Source: a virus. Taken from it: a DNA stretch of 62,982 nt. Each line of letters opens with the position of its first letter. Within the stretch, counting starts at the first letter, position 1. Below the pieces are notes generated by a model that ran no database searches, was not told where the DNA came from, and worked only from the letters and a program-made list of their open reading frames with translations. The DNA is taken from positions 1 through 62,982 of the IMG/VR virus record IMGVR_UViG_3300017978_000296; one strand, 5' to 3'. This document shows positions 2,137 to 59,331 of the stretch, piece by piece. Position numbers and translations under genes: made by a program.

Positions 2137-4929
2137 TCAGGGGTGCAACAATGACTCGAGGCGGGCAATGCGGGCTTCCTGCTCGACCACGCGCTTTGCG
2201 AGTTCGATGGCGGACACCAGCGCGGCGTTGCCGTATGCCAGCGACAGCGTTTTCTCGTCGTCGTAGCCGATTTGCACGACTTCTGGAAGCAGCGCCTGCC
2301 AGTCCTGCGCGGAGGAGCCTGCTTGCCGCTCGTCGCTGTCGATGCGGGTGTAGGTGCCGCTCTTCACGGTGGCCAGGCGCTCGATGAAGTCTGAAGCCAG
2401 CGCAGCCCAATCTTTCTTCAGGCGTTCGTCCGAGTTGGCGGTGACGTTGCCGCCAGCGGTAAAGTCACCAGTGGCGATTAAGTTCGAGCCGCCAGAATGG
2501 TAGAGCGCAGATACCGTGTAACCGGATCGGTGAAAAGAAATACCAACGTTGCCCCCGTCGGTGTTCCTGATCTCGAGCTGCGAATTGTTCCAAGTCGGAA
2601 CTGCGGTGCCAATGTTGCAGCCAATCGCGTTCTGAGCCGCCCTTCCCAGCCCATACGTCGCAGTGAGTGCGCCACTGAAGGTCGAATATCCGGAGTAGTT
2701 GCCGGCGTGAAGAACCAGATGTGAGCTGTCGGTGGCGTAGAAGTTTCCATCGGCGTACACATCAACTACACCACCCGTGGATGAGAAACCGAATCGGAAG
2801 TTACCGCCGTTGAAGGTGTAGCCGTGGTAACCGCCACCGCCAGCCCAAGCACTGTTGCTGATTGTGTGGCCGCTAAGGTTCAGGCTGGTTGGAACGTAGC
2901 CGGTGTAGTTGCCTGCGTGGAGAACTATGTTGTTGTTAACAAAAGCATTGCTCGAGTTGACCGCAAAAGAAGACCCAGTTGCTGTTGCAGTGCCGTTCGG
3001 GTGCAGGCCGATTGTGTCAGACCCATCTCGCCCAGACGAGCCTTGAAAGTAGCTGATGCCATACGTGGTCGCGTTCCCGAAGTACCAGATCGGGTTGCGT
3101 ACACCAGAAGACCAAGTGGCATTGGCAAAGCCGTTATTTCCGCCAGAAGACACCTGTCCCGGAGCGGAAAAGTTGGCCCCGCTAAACGAAAACGCGTTTC
3201 CAAACGAGTTGGTGCGAATGCTAATGCTTCCGGGCGAATTGATGTAAAGCGTGCTGTCGCCAGTTCCACCGCCCGTGAGGCCCATGTTCGACGAATCCGC
3301 TGAATTGCCGTTCAGCGAGATGGCGTTGTAGTTGGTCGCAGTCGAATTGCGGCCAATAAACAGGTTGCTGGATGCCCCCGTCGTCAACGTGCCGCCGCTC
3401 AGCGGCAACTTAGTCGGGTCCGTGCCGCTCACCGTGAGGTCGCCAGAGCCCAGCACCGAAGCGCCGTTGATGGTGCGAATGTTGGTGCCGGAGACGAGGC
3501 TTGTTTGTGGCGTGAAGCCCAGCGCGGTCGTAACGTCCGAAGACGTGAGCGTCACCGCGCCCGTGCGACCGAACACAGACTGCACTGGTGCAGTCACTGT
3601 CGACGTGATGGTCACGTCGACTTCTTCGTTCGCGGAGTCGTCGGCGATGCTCAGGCTGATGCCTGTGCCGGGAATGAAGTTGATGTTGCGCCGAGTCCCA
3701 ACCAGCGTGCCGTTGTTCTCGACACCCACGCGGGCGTTGCCTGTGTTGGTGATGAAGCCAGTTGGGTTGGTCGCGTTGTATGGGGTGAAGCCCAGCGCAG
3801 TCGTAACGTCCCCAGAGCTCAACGTGACCGCGCCTGTGCGCGTGTTGAAGCTGGTTACGCCGCCGTCGATCTGAATGTTGCCCGAGCCGAGGATGTTGTT
3901 GCCGTTGACGGTCTTGAGACCTTGCCAGGACGGAGTGGCGGCGGAGCCCTGAGACGTGAGCACCTGATCGGCTGTGCCGTAGTTCGGTGACGCTGGCCCA
4001 CCAAGCCCCAGAGGCGCGGCGAGCATGAAGTTGCCGCCGATGAAGTTGGACGCAGCGCCATCCATGTACAGGTTCCAGCGACCGGCTCCGGCAGGGATGG
4101 CCCCCCGGAAGCCGATGTTGGTGCTGGCTCCGGTCATCGTCGAGTCGGCGCGGAAGCCCACCTGAGTCGTCACGGCGGAGCCAGCCCCGAACGTCGCGTT
4201 CTGTGTGGCCTCGAAGTGATACAGATTCGACAGCGTGAACGATGCCGCCTGCGTGTTGGCGACAGTGCGGTAGTACGAGGCGCGGGTCGTTGCATCGGAC
4301 TGCACCGCGCCGTCGACCAGAATGCTCTGAACGCTCACCGCGCCAGTGATACCAAGACCAACTCGCAGGTTCTCGTTGTTCAGGACCAGCGAGCCGATGC
4401 CCAGCCGACCAGCGAGGTGGTTGGCTGCGGTGCCGTCCATGTACAGGTTCCAGCGGTTCGCGCCCGACGGGATTGCACCACGGAATCCGTAGTTGTTCGT
4501 GCCGCCCGTGAAGTTAGACGAGACGAGGTAACCAACCTGCGTGGTAACCGTACTGCCCGCGCCGATGGTGCCCTGCGCCGCGAAGAATGCGGACGTCTGG
4601 CCGACAGTGAACGACGCGGCTGCGGTGCTGACCGTGCTGACCAAGCCCCGGGCCTCTGCGGTCACATCCGACTGAGCCGTGGTGTTGATCTCGGCTGCGC
4701 CCCGAGTCGTTGCCCCAGTGATGTTGCCGCCGACTCTGAACAGGTAGTTGTTCAGGAAGGTCGTGTTGACGCCCAGTGCACCCGTGCTGATTAGCAAGTT
4801 GCCGGTGAGCGTACCGCCGGAGCGAGGGAGCATCGTCCCAAGCTCAGCGTCTAGGTTCAAGAAGTTGGCATCGACCTCCGCGTTGGTTAAACCGGAGCCT
4901 TTGCCAGCGCGGGTGACGATCGTTGCCAT
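2137..4929 (-). CDS. Tail fibre 1 (930 aa) with C-terminal S74-type intramolecular chaperone domain
   Basis: Track ORF with two ~110-aa tandem internal repeats. GAVTL[ST]S.DVTTALGFTP fibre repeats occur twice. The C terminus SDERLKKDW...AYGNAALVSAIELAKRV (nt 2137-2433) is the self-cleaving chaperone signature. Confidence 0.9.
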   Translation of the reverse strand: MATIVTRAGKGSGLTNAEVDANFLNLDAELGTMLPRSGGTLTGNLLISTGALGVNTTFLNNYLFRVGGNITGATTRGAAEINTTAQSDVTAEARGLVSTVSTAAASFTVGQTSAFFAAQGTIGAGSTVTTQVGYLVSSNFTGGTNNYGFRGAIPSGANRWNLYMDGTAANHLAGRLGIGSLVLNNENLRVGLGITGAVSVQSILVDGAVQSDATTRASYYRTVANTQAASFTLSNLYHFEATQNATFGAGSAVTTQVGFRADSTMTGASTNIGFRGAIPAGAGRWNLYMDGAASNFIGGNFMLAAPLGLGGPASPNYGTADQVLTSQGSAATPSWQGLKTVNGNNILGSGNIQIDGGVTSFNTRTGAVTLSSGDVTTALGFTPYNATNPTGFITNTGNARVGVENNGTLVGTRRNINFIPGTGISLSIADDSANEEVDVTITSTVTAPVQSVFGRTGAVTLTSSDVTTALGFTPQTSLVSGTNIRTINGASVLGSGDLTVSGTDPTKLPLSGGTLTTGASSNLFIGRNSTATNYNAISLNGNSADSSNMGLTGGGTGDSTLYINSPGSISIRTNSFGNAFSFSGANFSAPGQVSSGGNNGFANATWSSGVRNPIWYFGNATTYGISYFQGSSGRDGSDTIGLHPNGTATATGSSFAVNSSNAFVNNNIVLHAGNYTGYVPTSLNLSGHTISNSAWAGGGGYHGYTFNGGNFRFGFSSTGGVVDVYADGNFYATDSSHLVLHAGNYSGYSTFSGALTATYGLGRAAQNAIGCNIGTAVPTWNNSQLEIRNTDGGNVGISFHRSGYTVSALYHSGGSNLIATGDFTAGGNVTANSDERLKKDWAALASDFIERLATVKSGTYTRIDSDERQAGSSAQDWQALLPEVVQIGYDDEKTLSLAYGNAALVSAIELAKRVVEQEARIARLESLLHP

Positions 4930-45700: not shown

Positions 45701-48700
45701 CGCCCAAACCTGGGCAAAGACTTCCTCACGAAGCTCCCGTGCGGACATTTTACGGTTCTCGGGGTCGCTCATATCCAGTGGGTACTGGAGCAGTTGCGAC
45801 AGACCCGAGTCGTAGTCCTCGAAGTGGGTCAGGATTTCGTCCATGGCGGTGCCCGGACGCATGGCCATCGGCATGCCGTTGACCAGTTGGACCCGCATCT
45901 CGCGGTCGCCTGAGAACTTGCCGCCATCCTGCACGCCGTCGGCGGCGTGGCCAACCTCGTGCATCACGGCGAGGATGCCGATCTCACGAATCTTCATGGC
46001 GTCGTGGCTGAGCACGATGGTCGGCTTGCCGTCCATGACGGTGTAAATGGCGTCCCAGCTCACCGGGTCGAGCGTGACCTGCCAGGACTGAACGGCATCG
46101 AGCGTGTTGCCAAGGCCCGTGTCACGCAGGCGAGTGATCGCCACGTTCACAGATGGGTAGTGCCCGGTCAGCTCATCAAGGCTGGCCTCTACCGACTCGA
46201 ACTGGTTTCCGAACTGGTCGGCGCTGCGGAAGCGGCTGCGACTTTGGCGGGCAAATGGCGGCGCATCGTTCGTGCGACCCATCAGTTCTTGCAAGCCCAA
46301 CTCATCCTTCAACTTAGGCTTGCCGTTCGTGCGATCAGCCAGCTCGGTCAGGTAGCCGCGCTCGTTGTCCGTCAGGTCCTCGTAAGCGACCAGCTCGGTG
46401 TTGGACTTGCGCAAGCCATCCCACAGGGTTTGGCCGCTGTCTTGTTTGGGGGCGGCCTCGGCCTTCTTTTGCGCGACCTTCTTCGGTGCGGGAGTCTTCG
46501 CCTCGGCCTTCTTGGCCTTGCCCTTCTCCAACGCAGCCGCCACTTTCTCAAACATGGCCATGACCTGGGCGTTCATCTCGGCGACTTCAGCCTCGGCCTC
46601 CTCCAAGGTCAGCTTGCGATTCTTGGTGGCAACAGTGTCCTGACCAGCATCGCGGGCAGCTTCAATCGCCTCTTCCATCTCCCGAGCCTTCTCGGAGAGC
46701 TCGAATGCGCTCTGGGTGTCGCCAGCAGCCTTCTCCTCGAGCGAGACGTACTCGCTGGAGGCCGCGGCGATTTCCTTGGTCAGTTCATCTACTCGCGCCT
46801 CATCGCCAATTTCTTCAGCCGCCGCGAGCGCATCCTGCAAACCATCGAGCTTGGCCTTGGCCTGGCGGGTCTGGACCTTGGCACCCTTGGGAACCGTGTC
46901 CTTCCAGTTGGATGTGGAGGCACCCTCGCTGTCGACGGTGGAGAAGCCCGCAGCACCCAGGTCGGTCTGGGCCTGATCGCCCAGCACACCAACACCTTCG
47001 GAGACCATCGTCTCGCCGGTGTCCGCTTCTTCCTGCGGCGCAGCAGCGCTGGACTGCTCGGCCAACTTGGCCATCATGTTGCGCAGGTACTCTTTGCTGA
47101 GCCCGTGCTCGCGCTCGGCCTTGGCGAACTTCTTCTCGCGCTCGGTTTGGCCAGTCCCGCCTTCACCGGCAAGCTGGGCCACGCGGCTACGGCTCACGCC
47201 GTGCTTGGTCGCAACGTCGGCGGCATCCATCTTCTCGACGAATACGTCATTGAGGATCGCGGCATCGCGCTCACCGAAGACCTTGACCAGGTCCGCACGA
47301 ATTTCGTCGGCGGTGGCTTTGGCCTCGGCGGCAGCAATGTCCTGAACCTCGTCCGCGGTGCGGCTGGGGGCCGCAGCCAGAATCTTGAACGGGTCGACTT
47401 TGGATGGCGGCGGTGCGCGGCGCAGGCCCTTTACAGGGGCAGGCTGTTGTACGTTGGCATCTGGTACAGGTGCAGCTTGCTGAGTTGCGGCTCCAGGATT
47501 TCCGGCATTACCACCCACTCCTTGGTCGACAGCAGCATTTCGTCCTGTATCGCCCACGCTTCCCGGAACGACAGGGCTCCGTCCATCCACGCTTGGTGCA
47601 GCGGTTCCGGCAGGTGTAGTTGCTTGGCTGACATTGGATTTCCCTTGTTGTTTTTTTGCAACAGGTGCGTCTGCAAGCGCAGGGGGCGTCTGGCCGGTGA
47701 GGCGCTCGTAGACCATGGCGATCTGGCCGAGCTTCACGTCACCTTCGTTCTTGCCAGCGGCCACCAGAGTGGCCACTTGGTCGTTCAGGATTTCGGCGGC
47801 ACGCGCCACCGAGTCCACGCCCTCGAGCTGGAGTTGCTTCAGCTTGCCAGCGACCGCATTGGCGATCTTCTTGGCATCGGGCACGCTGGTCTTGCCGCCC
47901 ATGTTCACCAGGTTCGCACCCAGGATGGCGGCGTTCAGTTGCTGCTGGTCTGGGGAGAGCTGCGCGTTCATGGCAGCGACTTCCTGCACGAGCTTGGCCA
48001 CCTGCGGCTGGCCGTAGACGCGAGCACCCAACACATCGTAGGTGTCGTTCATCGTGGCAACGGGCGTCACGCCCAGCGCCTGAGCGGTGCTGTCCAGGGT
48101 CTCCTGCGCGATCTGCTGTTCGCGGCGGGTAGTGGCTTCCTCCTGGGCCTTGAGCTCGCCCAACTGCATCTGCTGGAGTTCACCCGCGGTGAGCTCGCGC
48201 TCGATACCGGTGGCCGGGTCCTGGGTGAACTGCCCGCTGGGCTCGTTGAACGCCTCCAAGAACTGCTTCTCGTAGTCGCGCAGCGGCGTGCGCTGGAGAC
48301 CGAGGTTCTGGTTGATGCGACCCTGCAAGGGGTCCATCTCGGTCGTCAGGTTGTACTGAGGCGGGTTGGCCTGGCCAGTCAGATCGAACTGGCCTTCGTC
48401 TACTGTGCGGGGGCGGCGAATACCGCCAGCGCCACCAAACACACCACCCAGCGCAGCACCGCCCACGAACGAATCGAGGTAGCGCTTGTTGGCTTCATCG
48501 TTGAACAGTGTCTCGTTGGGGTCTACGGCCATGCGACCGAAAGACTGGTTGACGAGCTCTTGGCCAGTCTCACCAATACCCTCACCGAGCGCCGTAACGC
48601 CAGCACCCGTGGCCATGCGGCGTGCAAGACCGCCCTGCCCTGTGGCCAGTGGACGCAGCCCGCGGGCGACCATACCTTCGACACCTAACGCGTTCAGCGC

Positions 48701-49327
48701 GGCGTAAGGAACACCACCAAGCGCAGCAGAGCCCAAGTCTTCACCGCCGGACTCACGCTGCGCGGAGAGCACATCACCCACAGCGCTGGGATACGACGCG
48801 GCAACCGCACCCGCAGTGCGTGCAGCCCCACGACCCAGGCCCACGCGAGCCGCAGTACCGGCAAGGCTGGCACCGCCCGTGATACCACCGACAACAGCTT
48901 CGCCCAGGTAGGGCAGCGATTGGGCAGCCAGGCCACCCAGGTAGTTCAGGCCAGAGCCAACACCATCGACCTCACGCCAGTCTTCGATGCCGCCCAAGTC
49001 ACGAGCGCGTTGCTGCGCATACTGCGCTGACTGCTGATTGCGGTCGCGCCTATCGTCCATGAAGCTCGCAACGCCATCGAGGCCTGCCCTGCGGGCCACA
49101 GCCCCACCCAGACCGAAAAGGTTGGACTGGTAGTTGTCGACGCCCGCAGAGATGCGGCTACCCGCCAGACCACGCCCCGCTCCGCTGTAACCCACTGCCT
49201 TAGCAAACTCATCGACCGAGCTGTAGTACTGCTGGTACTGAGGGAACGTCGCCCCAACGATCTCTTCATCCGTCAGGTTAGAAAGTCCGCCCGCAGCGGC
49301 TCGCAGCTCTTTGATTGTTGGCAGCAT
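42725..49327 (-). CDS. Giant internal-virion/ejection 'polyvalent' protein, 2,200 aa, with a zincin HExxH motif
   Basis: Track ORF with a Gly-rich N terminus and long coiled-coil/Ala-Lys-Glu linkers. VMHEVGHAADG lies at nt 45947-45961. An HTH-like segment DVATKHGVSRSRVAQLAG lies near nt 47160-47260. Confidence 0.9.
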   Translation of the reverse strand: MLPTIKELRAAAGGLSNLTDEEIVGATFPQYQQYYSSVDEFAKAVGYSGAGRGLAGSRISAGVDNYQSNLFGLGGAVARRAGLDGVASFMDDRRDRNQQSAQYAQQRARDLGGIEDWREVDGVGSGLNYLGGLAAQSLPYLGEAVVGGITGGASLAGTAARVGLGRGAARTAGAVAASYPSAVGDVLSAQRESGGEDLGSAALGGVPYAALNALGVEGMVARGLRPLATGQGGLARRMATGAGVTALGEGIGETGQELVNQSFGRMAVDPNETLFNDEANKRYLDSFVGGAALGGVFGGAGGIRRPRTVDEGQFDLTGQANPPQYNLTTEMDPLQGRINQNLGLQRTPLRDYEKQFLEAFNEPSGQFTQDPATGIERELTAGELQQMQLGELKAQEEATTRREQQIAQETLDSTAQALGVTPVATMNDTYDVLGARVYGQPQVAKLVQEVAAMNAQLSPDQQQLNAAILGANLVNMGGKTSVPDAKKIANAVAGKLKQLQLEGVDSVARAAEILNDQVATLVAAGKNEGDVKLGQIAMVYERLTGQTPPALADAPVAKKQQGKSNVSQATTPAGTAAPSVDGRSPVVPGSVGDTGRNAAVDQGVGGNAGNPGAATQQAAPVPDANVQQPAPVKGLRRAPPPSKVDPFKILAAAPSRTADEVQDIAAAEAKATADEIRADLVKVFGERDAAILNDVFVEKMDAADVATKHGVSRSRVAQLAGEGGTGQTEREKKFAKAEREHGLSKEYLRNMMAKLAEQSSAAAPQEEADTGETMVSEGVGVLGDQAQTDLGAAGFSTVDSEGASTSNWKDTVPKGAKVQTRQAKAKLDGLQDALAAAEEIGDEARVDELTKEIAAASSEYVSLEEKAAGDTQSAFELSEKAREMEEAIEAARDAGQDTVATKNRKLTLEEAEAEVAEMNAQVMAMFEKVAAALEKGKAKKAEAKTPAPKKVAQKKAEAAPKQDSGQTLWDGLRKSNTELVAYEDLTDNERGYLTELADRTNGKPKLKDELGLQELMGRTNDAPPFARQSRSRFRSADQFGNQFESVEASLDELTGHYPSVNVAITRLRDTGLGNTLDAVQSWQVTLDPVSWDAIYTVMDGKPTIVLSHDAMKIREIGILAVMHEVGHAADGVQDGGKFSGDREMRVQLVNGMPMAMRPGTAMDEILTHFEDYDSGLSQLLQYPLDMSDPENRKMSARELREEVFAQVWAFSNTFGGMEWLQENLPTTATFLERVNAEIKQTNYSQAGARQGAQPGQVQDGAAGQGSVLRASRSKAVPTIAKKEVNLLTRTLRTGADAALNKIVFSEDLFKRASKMGLRAAMDMDRIYRERAALTGNIEREVTRIENLYNRIPESAKGTGPRSANQFLYDSTRENKWGFTPKWRGKDASKVKVDPAMERRYNNELPEEARAWVSAVLEHGDKMLKMKKDTLIASTNSEYDALIADAKQRGETNKVTRLENDKAASLKQFQRLFATTEFNPYAPMRRFGDFVVIGKSQAYLDAAPSERTKMESDPDHYHVSFAESRASALELERQLNEQGSFSEVSARAKEDARGDMYGGLMDAFNKLRGNIESELNNATEPKEIAALRAARETVAELYLQSLAENSARKSEMRRRGVAGEIDMLRSFSTQGRADAHFLASAKYNPQTQEAVVKMRQQAKEGGNQLEKSDAFKEIMARHTQSMRYEQGGWFDVAANTSRVTSIWMLATNPMYYLQNLTQPFVLSLPFMTGKHNWTDASGQLMRAYFQLGDLLKSAKLGEGFDFTKVSKDKDEQDMVLKLVDRGRIDIGMDTELGQVKLEGDNVVGKTANRTDQFLRSLSQKVEAVNRVSTALAAYRLEIKAGSTPAQALEYADQVIGQTHGDYSRINAPRLFNTPGGKVALQFRKFQLIQLTLLTKLVYNSFKGASKAERAAARKILTYTLAHTGVLAGVVGLPGFAAAAFIINKLADAFGDDDEPYNLENELRKMLGGGDFARLVMRGAPTLAGADLSGKLGMGNALSILPYTDFEASREGFNAIAVGLTLGATGGLGARVFQGLGDIKDGDYYRGLLGLAPIGVSQAIKAGVEAYQGETNRRGDVLVSADEISTWETFAKAVGWPTSAVAERRFDRQIAFDNKEAFESKASKIKNEYSRAVRGNDSEARRAAIEKWQRLQASRKEAGFKPQPLSTLMKAPQEQAKRERNTSGGVQFNTQNRQFVQEQTAN

Positions 49328-52041: not shown

Positions 52042-52458
52042 TCAGTTCTCCAAGTACCGGCAGTCCTCGCGCCGCATTACGTACAAAATCACGTCGCCGC
52101 CATCCGAGGCGGCTTCTTGCAAGACGGCCTCCTGACGGAACCCGAGGTGCTCGTCGAATTTGCGGGCGTCGGCGTTGCTCGCCTCTACATAACCGCTAAC
52201 TCTTTTGCAGCCCAACTCCACGAACGGGTAGTGGAAGCAGTACCGCAGAAATTCTTTGTTGAGCCACTTTTTGCCAGGCTCGGCTGCAACGTGCATCCAG
52301 ATGTTGTGGTGGTTGAAGCCCTCATACAGGACCCCAGCCACCAACTCGCCGTCGCGCTCCAACCCCAGGCCCTTCATGCCTGCCACCAGGTTCACGGGCA
52401 TGCGCTCTTGGCAGAACGCAAACACCCGGGCGGGGTCGGAGACGACGCGAGTGGACAT
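52042..52458 (-). CDS. GNAT-family N-acetyltransferase-like protein, 138 aa
   Basis: Track ORF. VELGCKRVSGYVEASNADARKFDEHLGFR fits the GNAT motif A/B region. Confidence 0.65.
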   Translation of the reverse strand: MSTRVVSDPARVFAFCQERMPVNLVAGMKGLGLERDGELVAGVLYEGFNHHNIWMHVAAEPGKKWLNKEFLRYCFHYPFVELGCKRVSGYVEASNADARKFDEHLGFRQEAVLQEAASDGGDVILYVMRREDCRYLEN

Positions 52459-52691
52459 CAGACGTCGATGGTGATCTCGTCCGCCGCAGGGGCTGCGTCG
52501 GCAGCTTTCTTGCGGGTGGTCTTGGTGGTCTCGGTCTTGATGACCGCATCGTCGATCTCAGCCATGGCCAAGCCTTCGGCGGATGGGTAGAACTCGCCAT
52601 TGCGGAACTGACCCATGCTCTTGTGTTTCAGAACCAGATCACCGCCTACGGCTTGTGCGCCCATGGCGACCAGTTTGTCGAGTGTTGACAT
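52458..52691 (-). CDS. Hypothetical protein, 77 aa
   Basis: Track ORF with an AGGAG RBS. Its stop overlaps the next start. Confidence 0.65.
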   Translation of the reverse strand: MSTLDKLVAMGAQAVGGDLVLKHKSMGQFRNGEFYPSAEGLAMAEIDDAVIKTETTKTTRKKAADAAPAADEITIDV

Positions 52692-52735: not shown

Positions 52736-53128
52736 TTAGCTTGTGCTAGGGGGTACCGGCCAAACAATGTTTGTCGGGTCTGGCTGGGTCGTGACATCCC
52801 GCAGCGCCTGGCGGTACTCAGCCCATGCGGCCTTGGTGGTCAGAGGCACATCGGGCAGTTGGGTCCAGTCGGTCGGAGCAAGGAGTGCGTCGCGCCGGGC
52901 GCGGATAACCGGCCACACCACCCCATCAGGCAGGGGCTCGACCGTGAATGTCACGTCCATCACGTCGCTGGGCACCGGCAGCGAGGGCACCGCCCTGAAC
53001 AGACTGTCGTCGTGCGCTGGTGGGTTGTAGTTGACGATGCGCTCGCCCTCCCCCACGCGCATGAACGGGGTGGGTTTGGGCACCACCATCTTGATGGTGC
53101 CGTCAGGGTTCAGGAAGGCGTATGGCAT
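52736..53128 (-). CDS. Tail-fibre assembly (Tfa-like) chaperone, 130 aa
   Basis: Track ORF trimmed from a TTG start to ATG 53128. RRDALLAPTDWTQLPDVPL...AWAEYRQALRDVTTQPDP..IVWP is the classic Tfa C-terminal motif. Confidence 0.75.
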   Translation of the reverse strand: MPYAFLNPDGTIKMVVPKPTPFMRVGEGERIVNYNPPAHDDSLFRAVPSLPVPSDVMDVTFTVEPLPDGVVWPVIRARRDALLAPTDWTQLPDVPLTTKAAWAEYRQALRDVTTQPDPTNIVWPVPPSTS

Positions 53129-53141
53129 GTTATTTACACAC

Positions 53142-54494
53142 TCAGGCAATGGCCGGTTGAATTGGTATCACCTTGCGAGCTGCCGGGCGCACTGAATCCG
53201 GCCTGGAGCCGAAGATGTCCTTGCGGTCCTCCCGGAAGTCGCCCTCAATGTACAGAGGGATGCACCCAGTCAAGAACTCAATGCCAGCCGCGAAGACCGG
53301 CACGGCGTCGGAGTACGCGTTGTCACAAGACAGACCCCACAGCGGGCCTTCCAGAAACATGCACGAGCCCTGGCAGATTTGGAGCACTGGGCAGCTTGGA
53401 CAGTCCTTGCGATGACTCCAGTGGGTCGCCGTCTTGAGCTTGACGTTCTCGAAATCGGAGACGTGCCCGATCCGATGGGCTTCGCCATTGAACGCTGTGC
53501 TGGCAGCGCTGACGTTCTGGCAGGTCAAGACGTTGCCTCGCAGGTCAACAGCGATGTTGTCGTCCCTGTCCATGCCGCATTTCTGGCCCAGGCTCGACGC
53601 GGCTCGCCCGGTCTTGATTGAGTTCACGAACGACGCAACTTTGTTCTGTATAGCGCCTACGTTTGTCGCTTGCCCGGTGCGAATCTCGTGGAACGCCAAT
53701 CTGCGAAACGAGAGCATCTCCTCCGGATGCAACGACTGCGCAGCACCACCCTCGTCATACGCGTCAACAAAGCCGCCCTCGCCAATCGGCACATTGGGGT
53801 CTCCCGTCAACTCAACGAAGAACCGCTGGATCGCGGCACGCGAAACGTTGGAGCGGTTGACCATTGCGTTGAAGCTGATCCGCTTCTTTGGCGCGAGGCG
53901 CAGGTACAGGTCCATGATCGCAGCGCGTTTGTCTGGGTCTTGCAGTGGGTCCGGCCCGCGCACATGCTGACCAGGACCGTCGTGCGAAATCCCAACACTG
54001 AAACCCATCTCATCAAGCCACTGGTTGATTTCCGGGCTGAGCAGCGATCCATTTGTAATGACTTGCAGCTCTACCCCTGGGTACTTAGCCTTCACCGCAT
54101 CCGCCAGCGGGCGCAAAGTCTTGATGTACACGAACGGCTCACCGCCCCAAAACTCTACTCTCTCCGGTGGAGTGGTCACCCAGGAGTCAAGCCCGCGGAT
54201 AAAGTCGGACACATCGCCAGGATTGGTCTCATCCGCCCGAGGAACAAAACGCTGCGAGCAGTACTCGCACTCGTAGTTGCACGACAACCCAAGACTGATC
54301 TTCAAGACGCGTGGGCTGGACTTTCCTAGCGGTGTCTCGAGAGACACCGCCGGGGCGGCGGAAGTCTCCGCAGCGCTTACCCGTGGCCCGATTGGCCTGC
54401 CCTCAGAGTCTGATAGCTGGCTTGTTTGGTTGTCGTAGCGCATCTGAACGTTCGAGCCGTCCGGTGCGCGAGCGTAGATCGTAAACGTCGCCAT
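53142..54494 (-). CDS. Radical SAM enzyme with a C-terminal SPASM domain, 450 aa
   Basis: Track ORF. CNYECEYC (CX3CX2C) lies at nt 54258-54281, with a GGEP motif. The SPASM signature is C-x13-G-x4-C ... CPSCPVLQICQGSC ... C (nt ~53325-53579). A ~60-aa N-terminal extension is present. Confidence 0.9.
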   Translation of the reverse strand: MATFTIYARAPDGSNVQMRYDNQTSQLSDSEGRPIGPRVSAAETSAAPAVSLETPLGKSSPRVLKISLGLSCNYECEYCSQRFVPRADETNPGDVSDFIRGLDSWVTTPPERVEFWGGEPFVYIKTLRPLADAVKAKYPGVELQVITNGSLLSPEINQWLDEMGFSVGISHDGPGQHVRGPDPLQDPDKRAAIMDLYLRLAPKKRISFNAMVNRSNVSRAAIQRFFVELTGDPNVPIGEGGFVDAYDEGGAAQSLHPEEMLSFRRLAFHEIRTGQATNVGAIQNKVASFVNSIKTGRAASSLGQKCGMDRDDNIAVDLRGNVLTCQNVSAASTAFNGEAHRIGHVSDFENVKLKTATHWSHRKDCPSCPVLQICQGSCMFLEGPLWGLSCDNAYSDAVPVFAAGIEFLTGCIPLYIEGDFREDRKDIFGSRPDSVRPAARKVIPIQPAIA

Positions 54495-55180
54495 CAGGCG
54501 CTCCCGCTGCGCTTGGCGAAGTAGGCCAACTGTCGGTCGCGCAACGCTTTCTTGAAGTCACCAATGCTGTCTACAACGTCGTCAGCGGAGCGGCCCTCGT
54601 TAGCGCCGCACTCGGCCAGGAGTTGTTGCAGCTTCCCCGCCAGCGGAATGGACTGCCCGGCGGGCACAAGTGCGGTCAGTTGCAGCACCATGTCAGTCAG
54701 GAGGTCGACTTGCTTCTCCAACGAAGACAGGCTGTCTAGCGGATTAACATCGCGCACCAGGTCCATCTTGGCCGCGTTTCTCCTGCGGACAGCGCTCGCG
54801 GACGGGTACACTTCCGCGGCCATCTCTCCTGGGGTCGCAAGCGTCACCTCGACGAAGTCTTCAATATCGGTGGCGCAGGGGACTTGCACAACCAACACGG
54901 CTTCATCGGGCGTCGCCCCGAAGTAGACGCTCGCCACTTGCTTTTCGAGTTCCATCTGCCGCATGACGGCTTGCCAATCACGCGCATCGACGTAGGCGGC
55001 CTGGCTTACAAGCACCAGTTCGCCCCGCTTGACATACACGTACTGCATCTCGCTGGCGCGAAAAAGCGTGCCGTCCACGACAAGCGAAGACTCGCCGAGC
55101 TTTAACAGGTATCCATCACCAGTGCGCTCAACAGAGCAGACCGGCGCATCGTTTGAATGAGAAACAAGTGCGATTTTCAT
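54494..55180 (-). CDS. Hypothetical protein, 228 aa, partner of the radical SAM enzyme
   Basis: Track ORF with ATGA overlap upstream and TGATG overlap downstream. No recognisable motif. Confidence 0.75.
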   Translation of the reverse strand: MKIALVSHSNDAPVCSVERTGDGYLLKLGESSLVVDGTLFRASEMQYVYVKRGELVLVSQAAYVDARDWQAVMRQMELEKQVASVYFGATPDEAVLVVQVPCATDIEDFVEVTLATPGEMAAEVYPSASAVRRRNAAKMDLVRDVNPLDSLSSLEKQVDLLTDMVLQLTALVPAGQSIPLAGKLQQLLAECGANEGRSADDVVDSIGDFKKALRDRQLAYFAKRSGSA

Positions 55181-55752
55181 TGTGACTCCACCATCATTGT
55201 GAAATGAATTTCAACCCCCGGCCTTTCGCCTTTATAGGGGAAAACGTAATGCGGGATGTACGACGGGTGCACGACCAGTGAACCCGGGAAGGGCTCATAC
55301 ATCTTGCTGCGCGACGGCTCCCACGGCAGCTTCTTGAAGCCAAACACGCCGGATGGATTCTGCAAACAGAAGATTCCGGAGTAGTCGGCTTGGTCTGGGT
55401 CAGCAATGCACGACCAGTCCAACCAAAGGAGCGCTGACAAGTCAGACGCACCCTCAACGTGGGTCGGCAAGTGTTGGCCGTTCAGAAAGATCGACTCCCG
55501 ACCAATCAGCTCAGTGATCTTGACTTTGTATGCCTCCTCAGTCAGCAGGCGCACGCGCTCAAAGATCGGTCCGTAGATTTCAGGGTAAAGCACGTCCAGG
55601 CTGGTCTTGACCGGCCTCGAGTACGGCACCCGAAACGGGTTGAGCTGTAGGTCTGCTTCAATCGCAGCAGCACTGGCCGCTGCAATCTCTGCATCGGAAA
55701 GCAGACCGTCAAACCTGGCTACGGTCACCGGAAAAATCTGTTCGACCAACAT
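55177..55752 (-). CDS. Cupin/2OG-Fe(II)-oxygenase-like protein, 191 aa
   Basis: Track ORF. The layout IFLNGQHLPTHVEG ... PFPGSLVVHPSYIPHYV ... ERPGVEIHF resembles phage 2OG-Fe(II) oxygenase-superfamily proteins. This is a motif-level resemblance only. Confidence 0.6.
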   Translation of the reverse strand: MLVEQIFPVTVARFDGLLSDAEIAAASAAAIEADLQLNPFRVPYSRPVKTSLDVLYPEIYGPIFERVRLLTEEAYKVKITELIGRESIFLNGQHLPTHVEGASDLSALLWLDWSCIADPDQADYSGIFCLQNPSGVFGFKKLPWEPSRSKMYEPFPGSLVVHPSYIPHYVFPYKGERPGVEIHFTMMVESQ

Positions 55753-55759
55753 GCGCCCC

Positions 55760-56080
55760 TTAGCACTCGCAAGCGCATGCGCAGTTCGTGAACGTGTACA
55801 CCATACGGACAGTGTTCCCGTTCGGCTTGTCGATGTAATCGTTGTTTGGGGTGCGCACGTTTCCGCAGTTACCGTTGACGTTGGTTGCAGCAGTTATCTC
55901 ATTGCTTTTAGCGCCGAAGCGGTCGTGCAGCCAGCCGTAGTTGGGGGTCCACACTTGTCCGTTGTTGTTGACGTACATGTCCCAACCGCCTCCGGTGTTC
56001 AGGAATCCGAGGTTGGTGCCGTCGCCATGCACCCAGCGGTTGTTCACTAAGACGCGGTCGCCTTCAAGTCTGGTTGGCAT
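55760..56080 (-). CDS. G/N/W-rich 106-aa protein ending in CACACEC (candidate modified fibre-tip protein or precursor)
   Basis: Track ORF. Its ATG lies 1 nt after the fibre-2 stop. The C terminus ...MVYTFTNCACACEC was verified on the DNA. An AAGGGG RBS for the next gene follows 7 nt later. Confidence 0.75.
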   Translation of the reverse strand: MPTRLEGDRVLVNNRWVHGDGTNLGFLNTGGGWDMYVNNNGQVWTPNYGWLHDRFGAKSNEITAATNVNGNCGNVRTPNNDYIDKPNGNTVRMVYTFTNCACACEC

Positions 56081-56081
56081 A

Positions 56082-57242
56082 TCAAGCCCCTTTCAGTTCG
56101 TTTAGTTCGCGGCGCAGCGAAACCACTTCGCTCGCCAATTTGATCGCCGCCACAAGCGCAGCGTTTCCGTAGGCCACCGAGAGCATCCCGTCCGTACCTT
56201 CGCGGACCACGGGTGAGAGCAGTGCCCTCATCGCTTGGGCGCTCACACCGGCTTGCGTCTCACCCGTGTCCTTGCGGTCATAGATGCCCATCTTCACCTC
56301 AGCCAAACGCTCGAGGAAGTCGAGTGGCAGATCGCGCCAGTTCTGTTTAAGCCGCTCGTCCGAGTTGGCGGTCACGTTGCCTGTTGCAGTAAAGTCGCCA
56401 ACGGTATTCAGGTTTCCTGCGGTGGTTGTGTTCCCACCCGTGTCCACGGAGAGTAGTGTCTTGAACCAGTCACCCGCTCCATTTGTCTGCGCCAGTGCGA
56501 TTCGGTTGTCGGCCTGTATCACCAAGCCATAGCCAACCACGCCGGGCTTCACGACCTCATACATCGCGTCGTTACTCGACGATGTGATCCGCATGCCGAC
56601 GCGAGCCGTGGACAGGATGGTGTTCGATGTGCTGACCGCGGCTGCGGTCGTAGCCGTCGCCGCGTTGCCAGAGATGCTGATGCCCCAGGTGCCAGTGGCC
56701 CCGGTGCCGTTCAACGGTGCCGCGCCGATGGTGTTGTGCGATACCGTGATAGCCGAGCCGCCGTTGAACACGACGCCACTGGCGGCACCAGAGCCCGCGT
56801 TGTTGAACGTGACGTTGTTGTTCAGGTTGACCGAGATGTTGGCCGAGCCGTTGAAGCTCACGCCGTTGATGTTGCGGGCCGTGGCCAGCACTGTGGCCGA
56901 GCCTGCGTTGCCCGCGATGTTGCCGCTGATCTTGGCACCAGCAAGCGTTGTGATCCACGCAGGGTCGGAGTACGCACCTGTCGTGACCACGCCGTTGGTC
57001 ACGGTGCCTGCGTTGCCGGTGATGCTGATCGCGTAAGTCGCAGCCAGATCGACCCACGAGGAGCCATTCCATCTCTGCCACTTGGTCGCCGCGCCGGAGT
57101 ACCGGATCGTGTTGGTCGGGACGTTGGTCGCGGTAGTAAACGCGGGGTCCAGGCCTACCGCCAGGTCGTCGAAACGCGCATCCAGCTCCGAGACGAAGTT
57201 GGCGTACGTGCTGGTTGTTAGCGGTCTACTGTGGTCAGCCAT
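56082..57242 (-). CDS. Tail fibre 2 (386 aa) with a C-terminal S74-type intramolecular chaperone
   Basis: Track ORF. SDERLKQNW...AYGNAALVAAIKLASEV spans nt 56082-56363. The junction GDFTATGNVTANSDERLK is nearly identical to that of fibre 1. Confidence 0.9.
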   Translation of the reverse strand: MADHSRPLTTSTYANFVSELDARFDDLAVGLDPAFTTATNVPTNTIRYSGAATKWQRWNGSSWVDLAATYAISITGNAGTVTNGVVTTGAYSDPAWITTLAGAKISGNIAGNAGSATVLATARNINGVSFNGSANISVNLNNNVTFNNAGSGAASGVVFNGGSAITVSHNTIGAAPLNGTGATGTWGISISGNAATATTAAAVSTSNTILSTARVGMRITSSSNDAMYEVVKPGVVGYGLVIQADNRIALAQTNGAGDWFKTLLSVDTGGNTTTAGNLNTVGDFTATGNVTANSDERLKQNWRDLPLDFLERLAEVKMGIYDRKDTGETQAGVSAQAMRALLSPVVREGTDGMLSVAYGNAALVAAIKLASEVVSLRRELNELKGA

Positions 57243-57243
57243 G

Positions 57244-59331
57244 TCAATACCCTCGGACTGAGTAACTCACAGTACCGGACACCCGAGTACCAGAACTGTT
57301 GAACAACAGGACCCGGAAACTCAAAGGATCGAATGAGTCTGTGAAGTCGTAAATGGCGTACAAAGGCGTTGTGCCCTGTGCTGCCACCGTGATGGATTCT
57401 ACGTCAATAAACGTTTTTGGCCCAGTGCTTGTGCGGTCCTCTGTTAGGAACACAGTGGTCCCTCCAGAGTCGGAGGCACTCGCAAACACAGCGCCTGCCT
57501 GGTTCTTGAGCTTAGTGTCCAGCTTGATCGCCAAGTTAGACAGTTGTGCCACACCTTGGTCGTTCGTCGCGGTCACGTTAACTCGCACCTTAACGTAGCG
57601 GAAGTTGATGCCGTAGCCCTGATCGCCGGTAAACACCTGCACATTCGATGTGAACGCAGCGTCCAAGGCGACCGTGACTGTGACGGAAGACGAGACCGAC
57701 CCGGCTACCGGGGTAAGCAGGTACGCCACCGTGACTTTCATCGCCGCGAGCGTCGCGCCGTAGTCGAAGACTTCCTCGTAGAACCCGTTCGTCGCACCTG
57801 GCTGGATGAAGACCGGATACCCGGCGCTCACCTGTGCCGAGGGGCTCGCCCACCCGCGAGTCGAGAAGTGCGCATCCCAGGTCTCGGTCGTGTTGACCGG
57901 TATCACCAAAACTCCATCGTCGATCACGGCGTTGGACTTCGTGCCCGAGAACGTCGAGCTGAAGTTCGTCGCCAGGACGTAGTCTGGCGGCTGGTTGACG
58001 GTCGCGCTTGTGCTGACCGGGGTGCCGTAGTTGCCCGCCGTGTCGATGGCGGCCAGCCAGTAGGTGAACACCGACTGGGTCGGAGGGGCCTCGAACACGG
58101 TGGTAAACCCACCGTCCTTGCGTCCGATGTCCTCCGCCGTCGCCCACACGGGCCCACGTCGCAGGTCGTACGTCGCAATGGGCAGCGAGCCCGGCGTATT
58201 GCCCCATCGGAACAGGACGTTGTTGTCGATCACCTCGGTTGTGAGGCCTACCACGGAACCCGTGGCGATCTGGATAGGCACAGAACGAACTGCACCGGCG
58301 TTGCCCGCGGAGTCGATGGCCCGCACCAGGAGTGTCTTGTTCAGCCAGGTGACCTTGGTGCGAAACACTGTGGCGTACAGCGTGGCCAGCAGCGTGCCAG
58401 CGGAGACTGTCGTGTCGTAGACCTCGTAGCGATCCACGGGCAGCGACCCGGCGGGCGGCGTCCATGTGAGCACCACCTGTTCGCCGTTGAAGGACACCTG
58501 AGCTTGCGGAGCCGAGGCGTTGGCTACCGTGACCGTGATGTTGGTGTTCGGCCCGCGATTGCCGTTGATGTCGATGGCCGCCAGGCGGAACTGTCGCGCA
58601 CCAGTCCATGTAGCCTTGAACCGATAGGAGTTGCCCGACACCAAGTCGAACGGCACCCACGCGCCATCGAGGTACTCGACCGCGTACAAAGACACCGCCA
58701 GGTTGCTGTTGGGGGTGGGCCAGAACAGCTCGACGTCAGGGCCGACAAAGATCGAGCTCACCGCCATCGAGCCTGGGCCGAGGTTCGTGCTTGCGCCGTT
58801 GACGTCGTTGAATGGTCCAGCCAGGAAGTTGTACGCGACGTCCCTGATCCAGTAGTAGTACGCGACGCCAGGGTCTGGCAGCCCGTCGGTGAACGAGTTG
58901 CCGGATGTCGAACCGATCTTCTCGGCGCGGCTCAAGTTGTTCTCGGTGGCCCGCCAGATTTCAGTCTCGGCGTACTGATCGAACGTGCTGGTGTCCCAGC
59001 CCAGGATCGTGTTGGTCTTGTCAGTCGTCACCACCAGGTTCGTCGGTGGGGGTGGCGCGGTGTCCGAGGTAATCCAGTCCGGCATCGTGAACTGAACCAG
59101 CCCCAGGAGCTGCTCGGCGGTGTACTGCTTGCCGCCGATGGTCGTGACACCCTCTTTGATCTTGAGGAGCCCAGTGTCGATCAGGTCGCGGAACGTGGGC
59201 GCTGCGTCCAAGGCACTGCCTCGCTGGCGCAGGCGGACTTCCAGGTTCTCCTTGATGGAGGACAGGAACTGTCGGAGTTGCGGGTCGACGTTGACCGGCA
59301 GCGATGGGATGGAGCTGGGTGCGGAACTCAT
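57244..59331 (-). CDS. Tail structural protein with repeated Ig/FN3-like beta domains, 695 aa
   Basis: Track ORF, coupled to its neighbours. The repeated pattern is V.W.PP.....V..Y. Confidence 0.8.
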   Translation of the reverse strand: MSSAPSSIPSLPVNVDPQLRQFLSSIKENLEVRLRQRGSALDAAPTFRDLIDTGLLKIKEGVTTIGGKQYTAEQLLGLVQFTMPDWITSDTAPPPPTNLVVTTDKTNTILGWDTSTFDQYAETEIWRATENNLSRAEKIGSTSGNSFTDGLPDPGVAYYYWIRDVAYNFLAGPFNDVNGASTNLGPGSMAVSSIFVGPDVELFWPTPNSNLAVSLYAVEYLDGAWVPFDLVSGNSYRFKATWTGARQFRLAAIDINGNRGPNTNITVTVANASAPQAQVSFNGEQVVLTWTPPAGSLPVDRYEVYDTTVSAGTLLATLYATVFRTKVTWLNKTLLVRAIDSAGNAGAVRSVPIQIATGSVVGLTTEVIDNNVLFRWGNTPGSLPIATYDLRRGPVWATAEDIGRKDGGFTTVFEAPPTQSVFTYWLAAIDTAGNYGTPVSTSATVNQPPDYVLATNFSSTFSGTKSNAVIDDGVLVIPVNTTETWDAHFSTRGWASPSAQVSAGYPVFIQPGATNGFYEEVFDYGATLAAMKVTVAYLLTPVAGSVSSSVTVTVALDAAFTSNVQVFTGDQGYGINFRYVKVRVNVTATNDQGVAQLSNLAIKLDTKLKNQAGAVFASASDSGGTTVFLTEDRTSTGPKTFIDVESITVAAQGTTPLYAIYDFTDSFDPLSFRVLLFNSSGTRVSGTVSYSVRGY

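Follow-up and report, generated by a model that had tools for sequence, protein, structure and literature searches.

The window analysed here is a stretch of 62,982 nucleotides of viral DNA (IMG/VR record IMGVR_UViG_3300017978_000296, positions 1 to 62,982), in which we examined a small gene that lies in a tail-fibre module and appears to encode the stand-alone tip of a tail fibre. The gene occupies positions 55760..56080 of the minus strand and runs from an ATG start to a TAA stop codon at 55760-55762. Its product, a protein of 106 amino acids (aa) that we refer to as the tip protein, ends in ...TFTNCACACEC directly before the stop codon and has a further, fifth cysteine at residue 72. The open reading frame (ORF), its Cys tail and the extra upstream cysteine had been described in a first-pass annotation of this DNA, and our translation reproduced them exactly. 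The neighbouring genes of the module all lie on the minus strand as well. Upstream are a gene for a 695-aa fibre or host-specificity protein (57244..59331) and one for a 386-aa tail fibre (56082..57242), which carries a C-terminal Peptidase_S74 intramolecular chaperone at aa 294-346 (PF13884, 34 bits against a cut-off of 22) and has tail-fibre matches in PHROGs. Downstream follow genes for a 191-aa 2-oxoglutarate (2OG)-Fe(II) oxygenase-like protein (accessory family 0; 55177..55752), a 228-aa accessory protein (family 2; 54494..55180) homologous to gp029 of phage JWF, and a 450-aa radical S-adenosylmethionine (SAM)/SPASM enzyme (RS-SPASM enzyme; 53142..54494), which we propose to be a maturase of the tail. 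A 137-aa protein resembling tail-fibre assembly chaperones (52736..53149; PF16778, 63.5 bits against 26.6, with matches to PHROG tail-fibre-assembly families) closes the fibre module. This is the order of neighbours that the annotation had given, with a fibre gene upstream and the oxygenase-like, unknown and radical SAM genes downstream.

Comparison with relatives confirmed that the tip gene is real and constrained, and it looks expressed. Measured against a homologue that is 80% identical (locus L005), the ratio of non-synonymous to synonymous substitution rates (dN/dS) was 0.26 at a dS of 0.51, which indicates that the reading frame is under purifying selection. The TGA of the S74 fibre gene (56082-56084) ends 1 nucleotide ahead of the tip ATG, and a Shine-Dalgarno-like element, GAAAGGGG (56087..56094, minus strand), lies 6-8 nucleotides upstream of that ATG, inside the end of the fibre gene, an arrangement that suggests translational coupling of the tip gene to the fibre gene. 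The protein matched no family in Pfam, PHROGs or NCBIfam, and no precursor family of NCBIfam.

Full-length homologues of the tip protein were rare, only eight being found among 5.8 billion proteins. A profile built from these eight retrieved 153 matches from 1.84 billion representatives, 70 of them at E <= 1e-10, and in most matches the tip domain formed the C-terminal end of a longer protein, the proteins ranging from 83 to 980 aa. When the profile matches and the first eight homologues were taken together, 91 of 156 proteins had an alternating Cys run. As the matches without such a run align only to the N-terminal half (positions ~13-65), we distinguish a conserved neck from a variable part and a terminal tract. 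The neck (residues 1-55; 55916..56080, minus strand) is a beta-rich subdomain with the pattern RWVHGDG..GFL..GGW..NNxGQxWTPNYGWLHDRF, common to fibres with other distal ends; Y48, G49, W50, L51 and F55 are invariant or nearly so in the homologue alignments. Residues 56-98 (55787..55915, minus strand) are variable and indel-rich in the alignment of the eight homologues, and contain the extra N71-C72-G73 motif as well as most of a predicted beta-hairpin (74-99). The last eight residues (99-106; 55763..55786, minus strand), N-C-A-C-A-C-E-C, make up a terminal (N)-(C-x)n tract, which its conservation marks as the proposed site of radical SAM action and in which N99 to C102 form an NxxC motif. N99, C100 and C102 are invariant in all eight full-length homologues; in an alignment of 57 sequences no exception occurs at Y48 or C100, and at least 90% of the sequences keep N99, C102 and C104.

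The body of the protein had been likened to fibre-tip domains. This likeness has since gained substance, since the same domain ends long fibres of cultured phages, for example Achromobacter phage JWF gp028 (...NNGQIYTGRYGYLENYF...PRQNCNCDCNCNCSC|FPAGTMVLMADG...) and Ralstonia phage RSP15 ORF048, a 'side tail fiber' that ends in ...SNTNCQCGN*. The annotated tail fibre of Agrobacterium phage Alfirin has the neck (...GQVYALGYGWMHDRF...), followed by a different distal end that lacks a Cys run. We read the 106-aa protein as the distal tip domain of a tail fibre that is made as a separate subunit. Structure prediction of the tip alone, which had been recommended as a check, gave a divided answer. 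The AlphaFold2 (AF2) model was confident for residues 1-50 (predicted local distance difference test, pLDDT, >90), and pLDDT dropped to 55-67 over most of the remainder, for which no solved relative emerged. The alignment profile of the tip matched no PDB sequence even at E = 10, and a Foldseek search of the AF2 monomer against the PDB and BFVD returned nothing below E = 0.08. A likeness to the T7 gp17 tip surfaced in Foldseek only at E = 2 and is not meaningful.

To describe the tail itself, we collected 93 non-redundant tails from 127 loci. An Asn directly precedes the first Cys in 91 of them. The runs contain 3-11 cysteines, most commonly 5-6, and the residues between these are N (229 occurrences), A (78), D (72) and C (43). 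With four cysteines separated by A, A and E, the window tail stands at the short, Asn-poor end of the family range. The first-pass annotation had named loss of the tail in homologues as the outcome that would speak against its proposal; in the alignments the tail proved to be conserved. The position of the run is likewise regular. It ends exactly at the stop codon in 54 of the 93 tails, 11 precede a domain of 159-213 aa starting with C[FV]xxGT, and most of those that belong to neither group lie 1-8 residues from the stop. In the profile matches and the prophage loci, a run without a following Hint domain lay 0-5 residues from the stop. In JWF gp028 the extension is a Hint domain (Pfam Hom_end_hint, E 3e-12) that starts at the last Cys of the run. 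Hint domains self-cleave at their own first Cys, so the Hint variants would also release a chain that ends in the Cys run. Judged from these sequences, the (Asn)-(Cys-x)n tract apparently must be a free chain end, that is, its terminal position seems to be required. Besides JWF gp028 (L009:6844-8295), a Hint domain follows the Cys run in about 20 more proteins or loci, among them P0010, P0011, P0123, L129 and L286-L290.

The same need may account for the separate tip gene. In at least 10 cases a stand-alone tip follows a fibre gene whose S74 motif lies ~92 residues from its end. Because the S74 chaperone and the Cys run both need the C-terminus, we infer that these competing demands have split the fibre and its tip onto two polypeptides, and the tip protein would then dock on the S74-processed fibre.

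The survey also brought up several variants. One tail sub-family (L072, L074, L081, L083, L089, L235, L266 and others) ends in ...CNCNCACC-GCC, has extra N-C motifs further upstream (rNCNCgafNCrtNCNC) and often comes with two copies of the 2OG oxygenase gene. Two loci (L204:6202-7123, minus strand, and L205:9623-10544) contain three tandem ORFs of 98, 97 and 110 aa that end in NCNCNC(A)CNC, have a radical SAM gene ~1.4 kb downstream, and share an N-terminal part (GNGIVTFGDGT...) unlike that of the window protein; these could be subunits of a heterotrimeric tip or multi-copy substrates of the kind known for ribosomally made peptides with post-translational modifications (RiPPs). Unrelated proteins of ~60-90 aa with NCNCNC, beginning ...KCKNCNCNCHC..HGDVYG.C.C..C, occur in L100, L101, L102, L109, L125 and L164 of IMG/VR and have no radical SAM neighbour.

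The proximity of the tip gene to the radical SAM gene had led the annotation to name the tip as the candidate substrate, and co-occurrence in both directions now backs this proposal strongly. On homologue contigs with different backbones, one of which has a lambda-like siphovirus tail module, the gene order is a fibre gene, the gene for the Cys-tail protein, 1-7 accessory ORFs and the radical SAM gene, and this synteny is kept on podo-, sipho- and myo-type backbones. Orthologues of the enzyme with 49-52% identity are encoded directly after fibre genes in JWF and RSP15. In the forward direction we identified 361 relatives of the enzyme in IMG/VR, kept 80 loci, and counted the 61 with at least 3 kb of upstream sequence; a same-strand upstream ORF ending in a Cys run was present in 60 of these 61. 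At the remaining locus, L037, the ORF at 3705-4448 joins an N-terminus resembling tail assembly protein I to the final ~55 residues of the 2OG oxygenase family, a chimera that points to a deletion or misassembly; loss of the fibre genes in this way would explain this sole tail-less enzyme locus of the IMG/VR set. Species-representative genomes yielded 94 relatives, mostly from Limnohabitans, Polaromonas and other Burkholderiales, plus Ferrovibrio and Rhodospirillales, and a Cys run lay upstream in 54 of the 59 prophage loci with at least 3 kb upstream, a count that includes four Hint-extended tails and one tail without Asn before its first Cys.

In the reverse direction, we scanned IMG/VR DNA for a pattern encoding NCNCNCxC. 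Wherever such a motif ended a fibre-type ORF and the sequence continued for about 3 kb or more beyond it, a relative of the enzyme was encoded there (25-74% identity), and the loci without an enzyme have ~2.4 kb or less of downstream sequence. As controls, the fibres of a T7-like contig and of phage Alfirin have the neck motif, no Cys run and no enzyme. The idea that the neck motif alone recruits the enzyme was rejected on the basis of these two neck-bearing fibres. The second S74 fibre of the window (2137..4929) is followed by neither a Cys-tail gene nor an enzyme cassette. Thus, the Cys tail and the RS-SPASM enzyme are linked near-obligately in both directions. In some loci (L059, L149 and L153) the tail gene and the enzyme gene are directly adjacent with nothing between them, so the pair constitutes the minimal system. 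Since SPASM enzymes whose partners have a Cys-rich C-terminus act as maturases of peptides or proteins, and since the two genes can adjoin, the Cys tail is very probably the substrate of the RS-SPASM enzyme. The system is carried by the cultured phages JWF, 2-1 and RSP15, which makes the proposal directly testable.

The enzyme has the features expected of such a maturase. It matches the radical SAM family PF04055 (32.8 against a cut-off of 29.5) and the SPASM domain TIGR04085 (34.3 against 27). The cluster motif CX3CX2C (C72, C76 and C79) and FWGGEP, which contains the SAM-binding GGE motif, are invariant in 15 diverse members, and the seven-Cys SPASM set is complete and invariant (C306-X13-G-X4-C325, C365-X2-C368-X5-C374-X3-C378, C390). 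Only ~57 residues precede the radical SAM core. The named maturase families of NCBIfam score far below their cut-offs: PapB 51.8 against 340, QhpD (TIGR03906) 43.3 against 453 with only the N-terminal radical SAM core aligned, CcpM 39 against 500, anSME (TIGR03942) 37.8 against 349, and TIGR04463 33 against 525. The PapB, anSME and DynA models align with the enzyme end to end, and no NxxcB model was among the 25 listed of its 50 NCBIfam matches. When solved full-length relatives were sought with the family profile, anSME (E 2.5e-14, residues 72-394) came ahead of CteB (1.8e-11); the top-scoring PDB match, 8vpo, is a cyclopropylglycine synthase and covers the core only. As all named maturase families lie far below cut-off, the enzyme is to be placed, by these scores, in a distinct RS-SPASM family, and its chemistry is not transferable by orthology.

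We compared the pair with characterized systems. The ranthipeptides (CteA-CteB/SCIFF, PapA-PapB and NxxcA-NxxcB) likewise combine a Cys-rich C-terminal tract with a maturase that has a complete SPASM domain, PapB being the best-scoring peptide-maturase model over the full length of the phage enzyme and CteB its second solved full-length relative. In NxxcA the Cys of NxxC is joined to the Asn beta-carbon by a thioether, and freyrasin contains Cys-Asp links (PMC8326336). The window protein has N99-x-x-C102, and N-C-x-C occurs in 91 of the 93 tails, a motif match that by itself is weak evidence; Asn and Asp also prevail between the phage tail cysteines. By contrast, the phage substrate is a folded fibre domain, often within a protein of several hundred residues, rather than a leader-plus-core peptide of ~45 aa, the phage enzyme lacks an N-terminal domain of the size of a RiPP recognition element (RRE) and scores 6-10 times below the family cut-offs, the cassette has no conserved protease or exporter, the tail shows strict C-x-C alternation instead of CX3D or NxxC spacing, and the host of the system is a virus. 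Another parallel is QhpD, which belongs to the RS-SPASM enzymes and introduces Cys-to-Asp/Glu thioethers in QhpC, a small protein subunit that stays in a larger assembly and is not a released peptide (PMC8326336), and the window tail has a Glu between its cysteines. Here, too, there are differences, namely the core-only score below cut-off, the lack of a dehydrogenase context and the unrelated sequence of the substrate. anSME, to which the phage enzyme is closest among solved full-length relatives, has proteins as substrates and works without a leader or RRE; it targets the beta-hydrogen of Cys or Ser, but the phage locus has neither a sulfatase nor the C/S-x-P/A-x-R motif, and the model score is the low one given above.

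The structural side of the system also has relatives of a kind. The upstream fibre carries an S74 chaperone, as do self-processing fibres, and related fibres use Hint to expose the tail; the small, separate, G/N/W/Y-rich protein with a variable middle right after a fibre gene is reminiscent of T4 gp38-type adhesins. However, known fibre maturation is autoproteolytic or chaperone-assisted, and the window tip resembles neither gp38-type adhesins nor solved tips in sequence or fold. Metal-binding motifs of fibres and tail tips are known from the HxH iron sites of T4 gp37 and the [4Fe-4S] cluster of lambda gpL. These resemble the Cys tail in being short alternating ligand motifs at a probably trimeric tail tip; they differ in that the phage tail described here would offer Cys rather than His ligands and is paired with a radical SAM enzyme that has no counterpart in those systems. 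Searches of the literature on radical SAM enzymes, thioethers, Hint domains, tail fibres, receptor-binding proteins, ranthipeptides and phage JWF yielded no comparable system and no dedicated redox enzyme in fibre maturation, and no NCBIfam, Pfam or PHROG model covers the tail domain. In our reading, the pair follows the logic of ranthipeptides or sactipeptides and of QhpD-QhpC, and fails each named family on enzyme score and substrate type. What is apparently undescribed is the setting, that is, a structural protein of the virion (the fibre tip) as substrate, the alternating (N)-(C-x)n end and, in some lineages, its exposure by Hint.

Taken together, the explanation that we modestly favour is that of a fibre-tip domain with a terminal Cys tract that is matured by the RS-SPASM enzyme. 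The upstream fibre would end in its self-cleaving S74 chaperone, and the tip would for that reason be carried on a separate polypeptide, with the neck corresponding to the beta-rich part that other phages fuse to their fibre shafts. Late in infection, the co-encoded enzyme, with one SAM cluster and two auxiliary clusters, would act on the terminal tract and abstract a hydrogen from a residue near the cysteines, which might be N99, E105 or, in relatives, one of the intervening Asn, Asp or Ala residues. The sulfur of a cysteine would next bond to the carbon left by the abstraction, giving thioether staples that withstand reduction, like those of ranthipeptides, sactipeptides and QhpC. The same fibre protein is probably also hydroxylated by the 2OG-Fe(II) oxygenase-like protein. 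This would give the receptor-binding fibre a rigid tip, resistant to proteases and redox conditions, and a role of the tip in stability or receptor binding may be inferred. We favour a Cys-to-carbon thioether among the possible tail chemistries because N-C-x-C contains NxxC and because Asp and Glu have precedents as acceptors, although for this step by itself we would put the chance at even or slightly less. PapB is able to use the free carboxylate of a C-terminal residue for coupling to Cys (PMC12373016), which provides one rationale for the strict terminal position of the tail. The more general proposal, that a large class of phage fibres ends in an (Asn-Cys)n tract that is covalently cross-linked by a dedicated RS-SPASM enzyme, often together with a 2OG oxygenase, seems to us evenly balanced between true and false.

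Other explanations were weighed against this proposal. That the ORF or its Cys tail is a chance feature or an untranslated frame would fit a tip protein without any family-library match, but the comparative data effectively refute it, given a dN/dS of 0.26 together with a Shine-Dalgarno-like site, the synteny across podo-, sipho- and myo-type backbones, and the existence of hundreds of relatives. A different chemistry of the same enzyme-substrate pair, such as anSME-like formation of formylglycine, epimerisation, or C-C or C-O links, is rather unlikely. It draws on the position of anSME as best solved full-length relative, with a model that aligns end to end in NCBIfam, on the fact that the phage enzyme resembles anSME in lacking a complete RRE at its N-terminus and in its apparent action on a folded protein, on the cyclopropylglycine synthase as top PDB score, and on the regular alternation of the tail, which recalls the substrates of alternating epimerases. 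Yet none of the tails contains the sulfatase motif C/S-x-P/A-x-R, all enzyme scores are far under the family cut-offs, and those characterised SPASM enzymes that have Cys-rich C-terminal substrates form thioethers.

It is improbable that the CxCxC tail instead binds a metal or Fe-S cluster in a trimeric tip while the enzyme modifies another target or only helps to load the site. CxC repeats are typical of metallothioneins. The repeats of the tail have this form, alternation would place all thiols on one face of a beta-strand, and the three tandem paralogous small tips of L204 and L205 hint at a trimeric unit; a metal site needs no dedicated RS-SPASM enzyme, though, whereas the pairing is near-obligate both ways and the two genes are directly adjacent in some loci. 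Metal binding also leaves unexplained why Asn almost invariably stands ahead of the first Cys and why N or D is preferred between the cysteines. Still less probable is a RiPP-like precursor, of which the C-terminal peptide would be modified, cleaved and released as a signal or toxin rather than kept in the virion. The domain is mostly fused to fibre proteins of 200-980 aa, the cassette is flanked by a fibre gene and by the gene for a fibre-assembly chaperone and includes no conserved protease or transporter gene, and residues 1-55 form a confidently folded, conserved domain and not a leader. The features that recall a precursor are the small stand-alone ORF beside an RS-SPASM enzyme and the tandem, multi-copy small substrate genes of L204 and L205, a hallmark of RiPP clusters. 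The leader of about 99 aa with a short core, which the first-pass annotation had listed among the possible outcomes, does not fit: ahead of the tail lies a conserved structural domain that folds and that most relatives carry fused to fibre shafts, and the enzyme has only ~57 residues in front of its radical SAM core.

Several observations weigh against maturation of a virion tip by the RS-SPASM enzyme. The enzyme scores far below every curated maturase cut-off, and anSME, its closest solved full-length relative, makes formylglycine and not thioethers. Five prophage loci have no detectable tail, two of them having only partial enzyme genes. The window tail, CACACEC, is short and atypical and contains no Asn between its cysteines, and the AF2 model has low confidence and no fold match for residues 56-106. 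Modification of the tail is argued from sequence and genome comparison rather than biochemistry, and attachment of the tip protein to the virion from homology and gene order.

If the proposal is right, it would be the first radical SAM-dependent post-translational modification of a structural protein of a virion, and RiPP-type chemistry would gain phage structural proteins as substrates. The modification might lock a trimeric tip or create a surface for receptor contact, and infectivity would depend on an oxygen-sensitive enzyme that works inside the host. Tail-fibre tips set the host range of phages and are engineered for phage therapy and diagnostics; expressing or swapping fibres of this kind in a heterologous setting would fail without the enzymes. 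Conversely, N-C-x-C-x-C at a free C-terminus together with the enzyme would make a compact tag for stapling folded proteins. The system is also abundant, with 361 IMG/VR contigs and 94 species-representative genomes, mostly of freshwater Burkholderiales and Alphaproteobacteria.

The accessory genes vary among loci. The commonest accessory family is that of the 2OG oxygenase-like proteins, which 92 of 127 loci encode, some of them twice. The 191-aa window protein scores 19.4 bits with PF13759, below the cut-off of 27, and 23 of 28 family representatives match this model, the best at E 6.9e-15. H98 and H168 are invariant in the family; at position 100 its members have D, E or H, and the window protein has E100. 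The AF2 model of the window protein has a pLDDT of 88 and a predicted template modelling score of 0.86, and its Foldseek matches, at E 1e-7 to 1e-8, include 2OG oxygenases, among them protein prolyl hydroxylases of bacterial and human origin. These profiles and the predicted structure point to a member of the 2OG-Fe(II) oxygenase family with its His-x-Asp/Glu...His metal triad and double-stranded beta-helix fold, an assignment at family level. Presence of the oxygenase gene gave no clear signal when compared with the Asn, Asp or Ala content of the tails. The 228-aa family, which includes JWF gp029, occurs in 25 of 127 loci as an accessory; the window member has no match in Pfam, PHROGs or NCBIfam and no detectable relatives elsewhere. 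Another accessory family, of ~275 aa with a weakly Ig-like C-terminus, is found in 82 loci and is absent from this window. Accessory families 1 and 2 were considered as remote homologues of each other and rejected at an hhalign probability of 0.3%.

The cassette appears to be mobile. From the S74 domain to the radical SAM gene, 3.1 kb of the window (56400..53284) and of L005 (1510-4626) are 95% identical in nucleotide sequence, and this cassette is shared between two otherwise different fibres, which suggests that it is exchanged as a module to which the S74 part belongs. Within it, the two accessory genes are ~97% identical, the S74 part 92.8% and the tip gene, the most diverged part, 82.6%. 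A tip gene that is the divergence hot spot of a mobile cassette is consistent with a host-range determinant.

The window also encodes portal or head-tail adaptor-like, DNA polymerase, helicase, primase-like, and virion or internal-virion proteins, a gene set that suggests a podovirus-like phage. INPHARED contained no close relative of this phage and no match to the 5.3-kb region. Elsewhere in the window, the second S74 fibre (2137..4929, minus strand) is a 930-aa protein with an S74-type C-terminal chaperone (PHROG 25788), and a 206-aa ORF with a signal-peptide-like stretch lies downstream of it. A 2200-aa protein is encoded at 42725-49327 on the minus strand, and over its final ~750 residues it matches families of DarB-like antirestriction or giant virion proteins (PHROG 10089, E 5e-58). 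Right after the fibre module, at 52042-52691 on the minus strand, are an acyl-CoA N-acyltransferase-like gene (138 aa; PHROG 4470, E 1e-44) and a 77-aa ORF.

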